From an uncultured candidate division Zixibacteria bacterium (GTDB lineage: Bacteria; Zixibacteria; MSB-5A5; GN15; FEB-12): a stretch of DNA of 64,000 bases. The DNA is taken from contig CAVTJJ010000004.1 in NCBI GenBank assembly GCA_963735035.1, forward strand, positions 448,001 through 512,000, in the 5' to 3' direction. Positions 48,559-60,869 of this stretch are shown one piece after another. Numbering within the stretch: position 1 is the stretch's first letter; each line of letters starts with the position of its first letter. The translations under genes were made by a program, and so were the position numbers. The notes under the pieces were generated by a model. That model ran no database searches. It saw only the letters and a list, made by a program, of their open reading frames with translations, and was not told the DNA's origin.

Positions 48559-49527
48559 TTACACTGCGAAATCCATGTAGTAGGTTTCGTCGTCTATCTT
48601 GTAGAAGACAACATCTGTGCGGCCATATCGCTCAAGATGTTCCCTGAGCAGATACGTTCCTAAAGGGACAGAAAGTCGATTTCTGAAGTACTCACCCAAG
48701 AGACTGTTGTTGTGAGGGGTGTGAATTGCCTTATCATTGTCTTGCGCGCGCGAACAAATGAATACTTTCCCATCATCCGTTAGAACCGTAAACTGAATAG
48801 CCTTCGGAGGGAAGAAGTCTGACTTGTATACTTCGGCACGCAAATTGATATAAGCCTGATTCGGCTCGCGCCCTTCCCGTTGTCCCCAATTGAGACCAGA
48901 GTGCGTGCCAAGTTCACCTGTACGTGTAACAAATGAAACACGCACAGACCGCAACCCGACTACATTTGGTGAGACCGCATCCATTTCCTCTGTCGCTGTC
49001 CTTATCAGTTCTCGGCGGCGTCTGTAAAGGTCCTCATTGAAGACAGTTACAAATGCCTCGGCATCTTGATGCGTGCAGTAAATGGTCTCATTGCACAACT
49101 CTTGGTAATAGCGGCGCGCATCTTCGGCTGGAGCCATCGTCAGGGCTTCTCTTTGGTTTTCTCCGAATGCGGTCTGAGTATAATTAGCCGATCCAACATA
49201 GGCAGACAACGGTCTGTCTTCGCGAAGCCAGATATATACCTTTGAATGCGCGGGTGGACGTTTGACGAGATAACTACACTCAAAGATTCCCGGGAAATCT
49301 TGCTCAACAAGTTTGCATAACCCTCTGTGATTTCCAACAGTCAAGCCGTCGACTGGACACATACCAACGATGAGCCCGACTCTAATGTTATCACGAATGG
49401 TCTTGGCTTCAGAAATGTGCCTAAATGCCATGGCTGCAGTCGCATACCCGGATACAACAAGGAGTTCATCTGCCCCTTGACGCAACGGGTCTATGAGAAC
49501 CCGTTCATAAAGATCTGTCACAATCAT
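48559..49527 (-). CDS. PLD-superfamily restriction endonuclease (NgoFVII-like)
   Basis: VSGYA, HSKVYIW...YVGSANYT (HxK..GSxN), C-terminal SGLNWGQ...AYI DNA-binding region; between a C5 MTase and vsr. Confidence 0.78.
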   Translation of the reverse strand: MIVTDLYERVLIDPLRQGADELLVVSGYATAAMAFRHISEAKTIRDNIRVGLIVGMCPVDGLTVGNHRGLCKLVEQDFPGIFECSYLVKRPPAHSKVYIWLREDRPLSAYVGSANYTQTAFGENQREALTMAPAEDARRYYQELCNETIYCTHQDAEAFVTVFNEDLYRRRRELIRTATEEMDAVSPNVVGLRSVRVSFVTRTGELGTHSGLNWGQREGREPNQAYINLRAEVYKSDFFPPKAIQFTVLTDDGKVFICSRAQDNDKAIHTPHNNSLLGEYFRNRLSVPLGTYLLREHLERYGRTDVVFYKIDDETYYMDFAV

Positions 49528-50618
49528 ACCAACAATGCCTTGTCTACTGGTACTGACATATTAGCCTCGACGTATTCATATGGCACACCCGCAAGACTCT
49601 TTAGAATAGCTTCAAACACAACCTTGGCACCAAGCGGAGGGACTGCCATTCCGATCTGCTTTCTTACACTCTCCTTGGATCCGCAGAAGATGAAATCATC
49701 TGGAAAGGTTTGTAACCTTGCTCTTTCGCGGTTAGTTAGAGCCCGATTTTCTTTCCAATGGTAGACATGTGTGCCGCCCCCCCCGCTGCCTGTCACCGTG
49801 TAAGAAGGCTTATCTGGATGCAGACGCTTATATATCTGGCTAATACGTGCTCCGGTAATGTTAAGCTGTAGATTTTGTGGCACATTGGCTGTGAAGGCGT
49901 TCTCTCCGGGCTTTATGTATTTCAACCGCTCGATTACCACAGGTGATTGTTTTGTGAAGTCGTGGTTGGGGGCATCTACAGCAATCGGCGGGTCAGTAAG
50001 CGCTTTTCGGCTAGAGATGTCTGCTTCGGTGAAACGACTCGGCGACGGTACTTGATACTTGATATCAATATCGTCTCTGATTCCTACAATAAGAATCCTG
50101 TGGCGCGTTTGCGGGACGCCGTATTGCTCGAACTTATATAGGTTTGGATATAGGCGGTATCCTTTGTGGATAAACGCCAGCATAATTGCCTCAAGCGCAT
50201 TACCATCGTTCGAATTCCTCAGCCCCCCGACATTCTCAGCTAAGAACCACGTAGGTCTAAAATGGGCCAGAGCAAGCGCGCAGTACTTGTATAGCGGCCC
50301 AAATACTCCGTCCGTGCCTTTCTGCTCGCCGACAACGCTGAAATCGTTGCAGGGAAAGCCGAACGCAAGCGCATCGACGGGGGAAATCTTGTCGAGAACC
50401 CTAAAGTCCAGCTTTCTAATGTCCTTGCAGACCACTCTTCGTTTGTCTTCTGTTGATAAATTCTTGCGATAGGTTTCGCACGTGTCTTTGTCGTAGTCTG
50501 TTGCCCAGGCTAATCCGACCGCGTGAGCCTTTGTGGTTCCTGTAGCTCCCGCCAATTTGGCCCCCAGCCCCAACCCGCCGGGCCCGCAAAAGAGTTCACC
50601 TAACTTGTAAATCATCAC
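49524..50618 (-). CDS. dcm: DNA (cytosine-5)-methyltransferase
   Basis: LFCGPGG (I), GFPCNDFS (IV), ENV (VI), YGVPQ.R.R (VIII), RERARLQTFPD (IX), QIG.AVPP (X). Confidence 0.93.
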   Translation of the reverse strand: MMIYKLGELFCGPGGLGLGAKLAGATGTTKAHAVGLAWATDYDKDTCETYRKNLSTEDKRRVVCKDIRKLDFRVLDKISPVDALAFGFPCNDFSVVGEQKGTDGVFGPLYKYCALALAHFRPTWFLAENVGGLRNSNDGNALEAIMLAFIHKGYRLYPNLYKFEQYGVPQTRHRILIVGIRDDIDIKYQVPSPSRFTEADISSRKALTDPPIAVDAPNHDFTKQSPVVIERLKYIKPGENAFTANVPQNLQLNITGARISQIYKRLHPDKPSYTVTGSGGGGTHVYHWKENRALTNRERARLQTFPDDFIFCGSKESVRKQIGMAVPPLGAKVVFEAILKSLAGVPYEYVEANMSVPVDKALLV

Positions 50619-51661: not shown

Positions 51662-51694
51662 TCGATTGGCGGGTTTGAAGCAAACCCGTACTAC

Positions 51695-52302
51695 CTGTCC
51701 TGCCCCGGCTTGACCGGGGCACCCAAGGGTTGTGAGTCGACTCTTACGTGTAATTACATCAATAGAGTAGACGGCCGCCAGGCCGTCACACCGGTGTAAA
51801 CCGGTGCCCAGTTGTGATGGCAGAATCGTTGCCGTAAATGTTGGCAATTACCGTCGCAGGGATTGATCGAACATAAGCGGTAGCTCCTCGTCTAAAACAA
51901 CTGGGTTCTGGCTTCCGCCAGAATGACGGGGCTGTCGCCCTGTTATAACGATGGCGTTGGCTTGTAGGTCAGGCGGACTCGACGCCTGACGGCACGCCAT
52001 CGGCGGCCCTTTTCATGGACGGAGCGCCAGTTCCGTCATGCCCGAGTAGTCGGGCACCCATGACCACTCGCGGTTGCAAAAGAGCTTACGCTTCACAGGA
52101 GGAAGAGAGTTCGATCGGAAATGTTCCTTCCCCAGTGGAGCAATACATATTCTTACAGCATCGGCTACCATGGGCCCCCGACGTCTCGGGGGTGACGGGG
52201 CGGACGCTCCGTTATAGCGATGGCGTTGGTTCGTAGGTCAGGCGGACTTGACGCCTGACGTGGCGAGGCGAAAATGTCAGGCCCCGAGTTGGCCTGACCT
52301 AC
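51695..52302. repeat. Composite REP/MITE cluster
   Basis: Element homologous to 3110-3280; direct repeat GTTATA(A/G)CGATGGCGTTGG...GTAGGTCAGGCGGACT(C/T)GACGCCTGACG at ~51942 and ~52211. Confidence 0.7.
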
Positions 52303-52480
52303 TGGGATAAGCACCCCGTCTTCTTGTGGCAGTTGCAGAATTGAGACGTGAGTATCTGTCACCTGAAATTATTGCGTATGCGAGATACTCAAAGAAGTCC
52401 GGTACGCAAAAAGTCTTTCATAACAACTGTTAATATCGACGGGCGATTCACGAATTGGGGACGGACAAGCTACATATTCC

Positions 52481-52509
52481 TTGACAGGAGGAGCCGTCCG
52501 AATTATCTT
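52481..52509 (+). promoter_or_regulatory. sigma70-type promoter
   Basis: TTGACA-N17-TATCTT; no downstream ORF before the terminator. Confidence 0.7.
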
Positions 52510-52515
52510 GGCATT

Positions 52516-52905
52516 AGTCGGGGACCGACTGCCTAATTTTAGGTGTTGGTCGCCGCAGGACGATTGGACGATTGAAAGGTAAACCGCAGAGGGAGTACGT
52601 TGGAAGATTGATAAAGCTCCACCATCTTCAGATTGATCCTTGGTTAAACCACCCACCTATCTAATTAATCAAGGTCATGGTACCCCTTGCGGTTTACCTC
52701 GTCTAAACCGCTGTCCTGAACGCCATACTTAAGAACCTGACTGAGTCAGCGGGTCCAAGTTAGAAATCTTGGCCTGTGGAGACAGGGTCATCGGTACGCA
52801 TGGTTCGGTATGCGACGTTACTAATTCGTGGGACGTCGGATGGCTGGGGTTGTTCGGCACCACCACATAAGATGGTCCTGCTTCGGCAGGGCCATCTTTC
52901 TTTTT
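52516..52905 (+). ncRNA. Candidate large structured ncRNA (~390 nt), family unassigned
   Basis: Promoter plus terminator; long helices (AGGTAAACCGCAGAGGGAGTAC 52577-98 with GTACCCCTTGCGGTTTACCT 52680-99) and many nested hairpins. Confidence 0.7.
52869..52905 (+). terminator. Rho-independent terminator
   Basis: AAGATGGTCCTGC-TTCG-GCAGGGCCATCTT-TCTTTTT. Confidence 0.85.
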
Positions 52906-52928
52906 GTGCGAGGAAGTGTGGTGCAAGT

Positions 52929-53053
52929 TCGTAGGTCAGGCGGACTTGACGCCTGACGTGGCGAGGCGAAGTTGTTAGGCCCCGAGTCGGCCTGACCTAC
53001 GAAGTGTTCTCGGGCGAGGCGAAGATGTCAGGCCCCGAGTAGGCCTGACCTAC
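52929..53053. repeat. REP doublets (GTAG family)
   Basis: GTAGGTCAGGCGGACTTGACGCCTGAC...GGCCCCGAGT.GGCCTGACCTAC, near-identical to 52233-52302. Confidence 0.75.
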
Positions 53054-53343
53054 GCAGAGCTGTCCGCTCGCAAGTCCACCACGGTCGCGCCACAGCCGCC
53101 GCCGGAACCGGACTCGTGACGGAACGATGCCACCGCCGGATGATCTTTCAACAAGCTGCGAACAATCTCCCGCTGTACGCCAATACCCTTGCCGTGAATG
53201 ATTCGTAGGGTGTATATGCGACGTTTCAAGCATTCTTCGATGTAGTCATTCACGACATCGCGGGTTTCGCTCGGAGTGAACTGGTGCAGATCGAGGGTGC
53301 CGTCGATCGGGTATTCGATTGGTTCGTCGTGTTCGTTTGTCAT
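53050..53343 (-). CDS. Small Smr/MutS2-domain protein
   Basis: LDLH, RIIHGKG.G, G.GAT.V. Confidence 0.88.
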   Translation of the reverse strand: MTNEHDEPIEYPIDGTLDLHQFTPSETRDVVNDYIEECLKRRIYTLRIIHGKGIGVQREIVRSLLKDHPAVASFRHESGSGGGCGATVVDLRADSSA

Positions 53344-59996: not shown

Positions 59997-60124
59997 AAGT
60001 CCGTCCTGCGCCGGATCCCGGTGCGATCTTCATTCCCAATTACCATTCTCATTGACACAGACAATCAGTTCGCCTATCTTGTGGTCATTGCGACTATTTC
60101 ATAGGATAGATACAGGAGAAAAGC

Positions 60125-60869
60125 ATGAGAAACTTTGGCGCCGGCTGCGTTGTAATGTGTCTGCGCCGGATTCCGGTGCGATCTTCATCATTAATTCTCA
60201 TTGACCAGACATCGGATGGTAGCACATTAGGTAGTCAGAGAAGTGAGTTTGCGCTGCTGCGTTGTAATGTTGCTTCGGGTGCGGACCTAAGATCTACACG
60301 AGCCCTGACTTTGAACCAGATTGAACCACAAAACTGTTGCGATCCTTCCGTTTGAAGTCATCATGGATCCGAACAAACTGCCCAAAGACTATACTCTCGA
60401 GATGAAGCGGGACGCCGAAAATGCTGAGGCGTACAATTTCCAGCAGGAGCTCTACTTCCAGTTTCTCAAGAGGCAGGAAAAGGGCGAGTATACGGTTGAA
60501 TTTCAGGATGTAGACAAAACCAAGGCTCTTCTAAGCAAAGCTACGATTACAAACCGTGACTTGAGTAGATATACCAAAGAAGAATTACAGGCCATCCTCG
60601 GTGTGGATGCCCTGGTTTCCGGCACCATTCACCGCTCAAAGCCGATGTCGACCGGAACGGCGGTTGTATTGGGGGTGCTGTTTGGAGCTTGGGGCAATAC
60701 CAACGAAGTGAATGTCAGCATGAATATTCACGATGGGGCCTCAGGAGATCTGCTCTGGAAATACGATCACAAGGCATCAGGAAGCGTAGGCAGCTCGTCC
60801 GAGGGATTGGCGCAATCTCTTATGAAGAACATCTCAAAGAAGTTTCCTTATAAGAAGCCAGAGGCCTGA
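60125..60869 (+). CDS. Hypothetical lipoprotein; 5' part scrambled in this sequence
   Basis: AGGAG+ATG at 60125; fragment GCGPKIYTSPDFE at ~60277; intact body from 60321 (HKTVAILPF...LGVDA..SG.I...LLWKY). Confidence 0.55.

Follow-up and report, generated by a model that had tools for sequence, protein, structure and literature searches.

What kind of RNA is encoded at positions 52481-52905 of a 64,000-nucleotide (nt) stretch of DNA from an uncultured candidate division Zixibacteria bacterium? The whole stretch, which we call the window, belongs to a genome designated G000, and the original prediction, made from the letters alone, placed at this locus an unassigned, stand-alone and highly structured non-coding RNA (ncRNA) of ~390 nt. 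We find that it is the form lacking an open reading frame (ORF) of an RNA element that is spread through one family of the Zixibacteria, in other members of which the same core lies in the 5' leader of a gene for a signal-peptide protein. One side of that core is complementary to the 5' 46 nt of a small RNA (sRNA) that has the same family-level distribution and is invariant in this part. The best reading, to which we give a probability of about 0.55, is that the ~390-nt RNA is a target mimic or decoy of this ultraconserved sRNA, which it would capture or respond to.

An RNA gene with a conserved fold

The unit has the signals of an independent gene. It had been described as bracketed by a near-consensus promoter and a strong cUUCGg terminator, and a pattern scan recovers both, as TTGACA-17-TATCTT (10 of 12 consensus matches) and as a 13-pair stem followed by a T-run. 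Such a promoter is not significant alone, as 2.3 kb contain two promoter-like sites where 1.2±1.2 are expected. The motif TTGACA-17-TAnnTT is present at the same place in all of the first 11 homologous loci, where the sequence of the spacer is unrelated, and TTGAC[AT]-16/18-TAnnnT is found in 16 of 20 further homologous loci. The terminator stem (helix 11 in the alignment of seven sequences described below) is 96.7% paired, and four of its pairs carry double changes. ORFs on the plus strand within 52481-52905 are 30-52 amino acids (aa) in length, none longer, and the insertions and deletions read from the homolog alignment are not multiples of three, in agreement with the earlier view that no credible ORF is present. 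A small peptide starting at the ATG of GGAUGGCUGG in the 3' element was considered and rejected, as the frames vary in length and sequence among the homologs, and the G007 homolog has no ATG there. The region is single-copy in its genome. There is little doubt that this is a real ncRNA gene with its own promoter and terminator.

The RNA is predicted to fold stably, with a minimum free energy (MFE) of -162.3 kcal/mol (z = -6.51; 0 of 100 shuffled sequences as stable); the antisense strand of the gene gives z = -3.9. Together with its promoter and terminator, this upholds the description of a stand-alone, highly structured RNA. The helices listed in the original prediction are all present in the MFE structure, namely the 5' hairpin, CAGGAC with GTCCTG, 52577-52598 with 52680-52699, GAAGAT with ATCTTC, the TGATCCTTGGTTAA arm and the 3' arms. 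The suggested pseudoknot between the C-rich loop CCACCCACC and downstream G-tracts fared less well; by eye it offers at most four contiguous pairs, and the CCACCCACC loop is missing in homologs of the G007/L041 type.

Is the fold conserved? Seven full-length homologs (393-447 nt) were aligned and a consensus structure derived with RNAalifold, in which 91.7% of 627 cells are paired. Two-sided changes occur in 23 of 91 pairs, compared with 9.1±2.2 when columns are shuffled (none of 500 shuffles attains 23) and 5-11 in slid controls; with only seven related sequences, and a structure derived from the same alignment, these pairing and covariation figures lean towards structure. The homologs thus keep the fold, as the original prediction had proposed to check. 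The three-way-junction core taken alone (11 sequences) is 90% paired, compared with 39-49% in slid controls, and has only four double changes because it hardly varies. Helix P1 of the core does covary in distant members, where AGGUA/UACCU becomes GGGUA/UACCC.

Expression was sought in public sequence data. A word index returned 20 runs of 17 studies, each containing only 0.09-0.15 of the sampled words. RNA-library contigs of relatives, from four runs of four studies (90-291 nt; depth 3.5-28), match positions 52537-52762 and 52829-52864 with 80-99% likeness. The ends and strand of the transcript cannot be read from these contigs, and carry-over of DNA is possible; positions lacking contig cover count neither for nor against expression. 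The contigs give a weak hint that the family is transcribed.

Two forms of one element

How widely is the RNA distributed? By BLAST it is found in 3 of 61 relatives. A palindrome pattern scan of the genomes of 185,579 species returned 21 loci, of which two are real homologs and 19 are chance inverted repeats, while in a metagenome pattern scan six of seven loci were real. A structure model, R1, matched 4 of 151 genomes of the phylum and 6 of 108 genomes of the family. The RNA therefore looked rare, but R1 was too close to the first four sequences, and that impression was overturned by loci downstream of thyX and by a second model. The thyX loci were taken from 93 of the 108 family genomes. When 26 of them were searched without filters, three (L069, L079 and L068) gave weak matches over the full length immediately downstream of thyX. 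A promoter and motif scan of 28 pointed to these three and also to L082, and by eye each of the four is a divergent homolog. The second model, R2, uses sequence alone and was built on the core's 5' half from 15 sequences. At E<=0.001 it has leader-type matches in 33 of the 108 family genomes, with about 10 more at E 0.001-0.01, and no match in 96 genomes from the other 18 families sampled.

The matches fall into two forms. In the leader form, type B, the core lies in the 5' leader of a gene for a signal-peptide protein. Three of the genomes matched by R1 already showed this arrangement, with the core followed by a gene for a large signal-peptide protein and no 3' domain. A script run on 20 further loci detected, in 17, a long ORF on the same strand that begins 58-204 nt past the motif, and a crude signal-peptide test flagged 15 of these; the two unflagged ORFs and that of G194, whose locus was too short for the script, were judged by eye to be of the same kind, giving 18. 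With six earlier loci that stand outside the scripted ORF test, type B comprises 24 genomes, each called by eye on its sequence. Leader length is 213-351 nt in the 20 that have a recognisable promoter. The proteins that follow are of at least three unrelated kinds by eye, and a Pfam scan of the first six detected DUF4114 or Big_9 only.

In the ORF-less form, type A, the core is followed by a conserved 3' domain and a terminator, and there is no long ORF. The ~390-nt RNA is thus the ORF-less form of a family-wide element. Type A is found in G000, G002, G007, G198, G167 and G168 and at the metagenome loci L039, L040, L042/L044 and L045. In the alignment of seven homologs the 3' element reads CGUCGGAUGGCUGGGGU..GGCACCACC, and three more distant ORF-less members carry a related GCUGG..GCGCCACCA block; G167 and G168, neither with a long ORF, have a GCUGG..GCGCCACCA element like that of the ~390-nt RNA. 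Just 5' of the terminator of the ORF-less form (52832-52866 and its homologs) there is a small hairpin, GCUGG..CUGGC, and then a conserved unpaired word resembling (G/A)CCACCA.

The R2 match follows thyX directly and on the same strand in 19 genomes, as it does here. We considered thyX as a functional partner and rejected it, the adjacency being absent in G002, G014, genus g24 and the UvrD-linked metagenome loci. It is read as the ancestral position of the element and not as a regulatory link.

Complementarity to an invariant small RNA

Besides its leader-type matches, R2 gives once in nearly every genome a 30-nt match of 16.8-17.1 bits over model positions 13-41. An invariant 46-nt block is common to 11 of 11 such loci when aligned; on the strand opposite to the match it is preceded by TTGACA-17-TAnnnT and followed by a hairpin with a covarying stem and a U-run. 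These are the features of an sRNA gene. R2 matches the strand antisense to this sRNA, which is therefore complementary to the core's conserved 5' half. In G000 the gene lies outside the window and ~78 kb from the ~390-nt RNA, so that the sRNA is trans-encoded; its 5' end is predicted at the G of GCAAUCGG. Of 107 family genomes 99 have the sRNA, as does G000. Outside the family it is found in 2 of 177 genomes (one of five in family f2, one of 21 in f5 and 0 of 151 others). The f2 match (G049) has 83% identity over nt 2-55 and the f5 match (G211) 97% over nt 2-59; these may reflect bin contamination, transfer or an older origin of the sRNA.

The predicted duplex between sRNA nt 1-46 and the 5' side of the core in the ~390-nt RNA has an energy of -45.7 kcal/mol (RNAduplex). 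By comparison, 200 shuffled sRNAs give -28.8±2.9 kcal/mol (best -37.0), the antisense strand of the target gives -29.4 kcal/mol, and for 318 other window pieces of 396 nt the energy is -27.0±2.9 kcal/mol (best -41.3). In 35 of 35 family members the optimal duplex extends from sRNA nt 1 to 45 or 46 with 31-40 pairs, at energies of -33.6 to -51.9 kcal/mol (mean -42.8, against -22.8 for shuffled targets) and z-scores of -3.2 to -12.7 (median -6.6). The 11 ORF-less members tested all keep it (-41.0 to -48.2 kcal/mol), and by hand-computed means they pair somewhat better, at about -46 kcal/mol, than the leaders, at about -41 kcal/mol. Pairing is arranged in blocks: sRNA nt 1-7 with CGAUUGC, 16-29 with the purine-rich strand of P2, 31-36 with AGGUAA and 41-46 with GGACGA. 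Opposite a U or G of the sRNA the target carries the wobble-compatible alternative in 134 of 630 cells (21%), while opposite an A or C within the paired blocks 33 of 490 cells (7%) are unpaired. Such tolerance of wobble substitution is the pattern that selection for pairing would predict, but the optimiser outputs allowed pairs alone, and the targets are related by descent.

The target strand lies within the junction. In the free RNA the linker UGAAA that precedes P1 is unpaired with a probability of 0.92. When both whole RNAs are cofolded the sRNA still occupies its site, with a net gain of -7.5 kcal/mol after opening the core. The 3' strand of P1, GCGGUUUACCU, resembles sRNA nt 26-36, GUGGAUUACCU, as read from the sequences, and the core may therefore be viewed as a target site that is held shut by a built-in copy of the RNA regulating it. 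The ~390-nt RNA shows no second site for the sRNA, the best remaining duplexes (-18.1 and -24.0 kcal/mol) being at background. Kissing of the P3 and P4 loops (AGAUUG with CUAUCU, five of six pairs by eye) was also considered; both words are invariant and both are accounted for by the sRNA, and we discarded it. From the computed pairing we consider it probable that the ~390-nt RNA and the sRNA pair functionally in the cell.

A scan of G000 for other targets, seeded with 8-mers and so missing sites that rely on G-U pairs, including the ~390-nt RNA itself, gave four further complementary sites on the plus strand of contig C4, at 1077905, 946305, 950700 and 162413 (-39.7 to -47.7 kcal/mol). Each carries the words GGACGA..AGGUAA..GAGAGUAAC. 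They lie 54-106 nt upstream of genes, one encoding a protein of 2663 aa with 16 HYR_4C stretches and a Por_Secre_tail domain, used in sorting by the type IX secretion system, and three encoding paralogous signal-peptide proteins of ~1235 aa without a Pfam match. G000 therefore holds both predicted mRNA-leader sites and the ORF-less RNA. R2 detects none of the four, and so the sRNA probably has classes of leader beyond the one described here. Altogether the ~390-nt RNA shares its sRNA site with 24 signal-peptide leaders in other genomes and with these four in its own, all of them predicted targets.

Table 1. Coordinates of the RNA gene, its parts and the partner sRNA gene (window positions, except where a contig is given)
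Feature	Position	Strand	Basis or remark
Sigma-70-type promoter	-35 TTGACA 52481-52486; 17-nt spacer; -10 TATCTT 52504-52509	+	Pattern scan
Non-coding RNA, ~390 nt	52516..52905	+	Start ~52516 predicted from promoter, unmapped
Variable 5' hairpin domain: AGUCGG-GGA-CCGACU and next hairpin	52517..52554	+	MFE fold; helix 1: 6/6 pairs changed on both sides
CAGGAC, 5' strand of long-range closing helix	52556..52561	+	Partner GUCCUG 52713-52718; helix 2: 90.5% of cells paired, no double changes
Stretch complementary to sRNA nt 1-46: second GGACGAU (possible toehold), 5' strands of P1 and P2, GGAAGAUUG of P3	52565..52611	+	RNAduplex
Conserved three-way-junction core (P1-P4)	52577..52699	+	Alignments of 11 and 7 sequences
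Core P1: AGGUAAACCGC with GCGGUUUACCU	52577-52587 with 52689-52699	+	
Core P2	52589-52598 with 52679-52688	+	
Core P3 hairpin: GAAGAU with AUCUUC	52603-52608 with 52624-52629	+	
Core P4 hairpin; loop 52648-52664 contains invariant ACCUAUCU	52633-52647 with 52665-52677	+	
GUCCUG, 3' strand of closing helix	52713..52718	+	Helix 2 of alignment
Variable arms CUGAC/GUCAG, CCAAG/CUUGG, CCUGU/ACAGG, CGCAU/AUGCG	52720..52828	+	MFE fold; helices 6-8: 10/12 pairs changed on both sides
Conserved 3' element GACGUCGGAUGGCUGGGGU..GGCACCACCAC, ORF-less form only	52832..52866	+	Near-invariant in 7/7 full-length homologs
Intrinsic terminator: 13-bp stem 52869-52898, UUCG loop (CUUCGG context), U-tract to 52905	52869..52905	+	
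81-nt sRNA gene	G000 contig C4:422726-422811 (loci L117, L119)	minus	Promoter TTGACA-17-TATTTT, hairpin-U7 terminator

The surroundings of the gene have some features of their own. Between thyX and the RNA promoter lies a stretch of 820 nt (51662-52480) with ORFs of only 65-103 aa and no Pfam match; in related loci this interval is only 140-340 nt. A 24-nt element resembling repetitive extragenic palindromes (REP-like), AGGCCCCGAGTnGGCCTGACCTAC, occurs on both sides of the RNA gene, at 52279-52302, 52977-53000 and 53030-53053, within longer inverted repeats, and has 29 copies in the genome; such elements may account for the unusually long gap. At 60008-60330 there are two tandem copies of ~50 nt (GCGCCGGATnCCGGTGCGATCTTCAT..TTGAC), each ending in a promoter-like site, upstream of an ORF at 60321-60869. 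The second copy contains the second-best sRNA duplex of the window (60213-60266, -41.3 kcal/mol), which is either a real target or chance. On the minus strand at 48559-50618 there is a restriction-modification pair overlapping by four bases, comprising an NgoFVII-type endonuclease of the phospholipase D (PLD) family (322 aa) and a C-5 cytosine methyltransferase (364 aa).

Decoy, riboswitch, relic or sponge

Could the RNA belong to a known family? At the gathering score Rfam 15 has no match in the whole window. At E<=10 over 52300-53100 only mir-1490, mmgR and bxd_2 appear, at 11-14 bits and all by chance. Nine homologous loci searched at E<=0.1 give only a chance match to rpsL_pseudo (28.9 of 70 bits), and the sRNA locus only one to FinP (17.7 of 45 bits). 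Nothing in Rfam thus speaks against the locus being unassigned. The original prediction had set aside RNase P RNA, transfer-messenger RNA (tmRNA) and the RNA of the signal recognition particle (SRP) for want of their hallmark motifs, and rightly so, as the genome has its own copies elsewhere. RNase P RNA (RF00010) has no match in the window and lies at C3:153829-154197 (273.8 bits). tmRNA (RF00023) lies at C3:964901-965271 (183.7 bits), and ARAGORN finds neither transfer RNA nor tmRNA in the window. SRP RNA (RF00169), likewise unmatched in the window, lies at C3:180114-180214 (72 bits). Full-text literature searches, with subscription journals outside their coverage, found no paper on ncRNAs of the Zixibacteria.

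We propose that the ~390-nt RNA acts together with the sRNA as follows. The single-stranded 46-nt 5' part of the sRNA would land on the exposed linker and the second GGACGAU, and would then invade P1, P2 and P3. In doing so it would displace the internal sRNA-like 3' strands (GCGGUUUACCU against GUGGAUUACCU), generating a long and nearly continuous duplex. Long duplexes are substrates for double-strand-specific cleavage by RNase III. On the leaders the duplex would control the downstream mRNA, possibly through cleavage of this kind; on the ORF-less RNA the sRNA would be titrated or co-degraded, the RNA serving as a decoy or sponge. The decoy role is suggested because the ORF is absent, because the 3' element peculiar to type A is conserved, because the arms have changed in a compensatory manner and because the match to the sRNA is better in this form (about -46 against -41 kcal/mol). 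It is nevertheless tentative, and we would place it slightly short of probable. Release of an anti-Shine-Dalgarno strand was examined as the mode of action on the leaders and rejected: forcing the site to be unpaired in 24 leaders shifts the unpaired probability of the Shine-Dalgarno sequence and AUG by 0.000 on average (up in three, down in four).

A number of points weigh against this reading. The 35 targets were gathered with a model of the complementary motif itself, so that their shared complementarity is partly one inherited feature. As the sRNA is invariant, covariation between sRNA and target gives no test, and the tally of pairs depends on an optimiser that returns allowed pairs only. 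The complementary strand is buried in the free RNA, with unpaired probabilities of 0.03 for the P1 5' strand and 0.21-0.23 for the two GGACGAU words, and the net gain on cofolding is modest. An unrelated place in the window reaches -41.3 kcal/mol, so that a low duplex energy does not settle the matter by itself. The match might also reflect how the two RNAs arose, for example if the sRNA gene began as a leader copied in inverted orientation, and have no function today. Direct support for the decoy role goes no further than the absence of an ORF, the conservation of the 3' domain and a match that is slightly better. The short RNA-library contigs of relatives, with their possible DNA carry-over, are the only hint of expression.

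What else might the RNA be? The compact junction has invariant loop and junction nucleotides (GAUUG, ACCUAUCU), it is found upstream of varied genes and the sequence after P1 is variable, all of which would suit a riboswitch-like aptamer controlling the secreted-protein gene in cis; in two leaders a hairpin just after P1 even shares ACCU with the 3' strand of P1. The ~390-nt RNA would then be an orphan riboswitch, and its sRNA match secondary. However, the set of conserved positions is almost exactly the set complementary to the sRNA, and therefore their conservation is explained without a ligand. Moreover the outer part of P1 is more conserved than that next to the junction, the downstream genes encode unrelated secreted proteins (DUF4114, Big_9, HYR_4C/Por_Secre_tail) without a common metabolic theme, and no Rfam riboswitch matches, so that we think this explanation unlikely. 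A relic, transcribed but without function of its own after deletion of a secreted-protein gene, would have about the length observed (leaders are 213-351 nt), would lie after thyX where other genomes have leader and gene, and would fit with local rearrangement at the flanking REP-like elements. Yet the ORF-less form retains its promoter, core, own 3' element and terminator across several genera and five distinct metagenome loci, while the arms between these parts diverge with compensatory changes; this points to selection on the RNA, and makes a mere relic unlikely too.

Repeated GGA motifs raise the alternative of a protein-binding RNA, such as a CsrA-type sponge or a ribonucleoprotein scaffold. 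By hand count there are eight GGA triplets, several within the conserved words AGGACGA, UGGAAGAUUG and CGGAUGG; the genome has a CsrA gene (82.8 bits), and the strong conserved promoter suggests abundance. CsrB-type sponges have 7-22 sites. The count here is low for such a sponge, most of the motifs are in predicted stems and not in hairpin loops, and the conserved words are accounted for by complementarity to the sRNA, leaving this role improbable. We judge far less probable still a divergent housekeeping RNA missed by the Rfam models, of which an extended 6S RNA would be the obvious case. Like 6S RNA, the ~390-nt RNA is stand-alone and abundant-looking with a strong promoter, and no other candidate was recognised in the genome: its 6S gene is unaccounted for, as RF00013 matches neither 52300-53100 (E<=10) nor anything in the genome as a whole (E<=1). 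This miss says little in itself because the search recognises only 5 of 14 control genomes. But the finding is about twice as long as 6S RNA, and its fold branches repeatedly, with a three-way junction, in place of the long rod and central bubble of 6S RNA. In most of the family the element serves as an mRNA leader, a form counted in 24 genomes, and RNase P RNA, tmRNA and SRP RNA are all found elsewhere in the genome.

The decoy reading has parallels among known systems. Enterobacteria contain decoys and sponges of sRNAs, including the chbBC intergenic decoy of ChiX, SroC for GcvB, and 3'ETS-leuZ for RyhB and RybB. In these, as here, the pairing site found in the mRNA targets of a trans-acting sRNA recurs in an RNA that has no regulated ORF of its own and could titrate the sRNA. 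The RNA described here differs in being a dedicated gene of ~390 nt with its own promoter and terminator and a highly structured product, for which titration would be the proposed role, and in matching the whole free 46-nt part of the sRNA rather than a seed of 7-20 nt, with the site locked in a junction by an sRNA-like strand. The rpoS leader is a long 5' leader that is opened by the sRNAs DsrA, RprA and ArcZ, and there too a trans-acting sRNA pairs with one strand of a helix far upstream; the type B site ends 120-268 nt before the AUG. In contrast to rpoS, blocking the site leaves the predicted accessibility of the ribosome-binding site unchanged (24 leaders, mean 0.000), so that an anti-antisense mechanism of that type is not supported, and the ~390-nt RNA has no ORF to control. 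Trans-acting RNAs derived from riboswitches or leaders include SreA/SreB and EutX/Rli55. The likeness is that a leader fold of cis-regulatory type, closed off by a terminator, works as a free RNA, or here could do so; the difference is that the partner here would be an sRNA and not a protein or mRNA, and that there is no known ligand. A SAM-I (S-adenosylmethionine) riboswitch/sRNA of Desulfovibrio may be a further comparable system. Large lineage-restricted RNAs such as OLE, GOLLD, ROOL and raiA also have a long, ornate and conserved fold confined to one lineage, with a function not evident from context, but there is no sequence or structure match to them in Rfam, and the RNA here has an identifiable RNA partner and relatives that are mRNA leaders.

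The constituents are thus of known kinds, a trans-acting sRNA, a long leader as target and a decoy RNA. The unusual features are a match along all 46 nt, a junction locked by an internal sRNA-like strand, a dedicated and structured member without an ORF, and the link to an sRNA invariant to the letter. The work adds two RNA families absent from Rfam 15, the long RNA or leader element and the 81-nt sRNA, and provides candidate partners for this frozen sRNA, namely the leaders of large secreted-protein genes and a free-standing RNA that carries this site without a gene. It may also offer, beyond the well-studied Proteobacteria and Firmicutes, a natural case in which an sRNA forms long duplexes with its targets and a structured RNA is dedicated to the decoy role. 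We can envisage, although we think it rather doubtful, a three-part circuit operating in one family of the Zixibacteria, in which the sRNA would open the junction lock both in the secreted-protein leaders and in the ORF-less RNA, with the latter a structured and possibly regulated decoy that sets a threshold. The reason for the invariance of the sRNA is now a question that can be tested. If the circuit is real, the need to match several locks in each genome would explain why the sRNA has remained unchanged across about 100 genomes.

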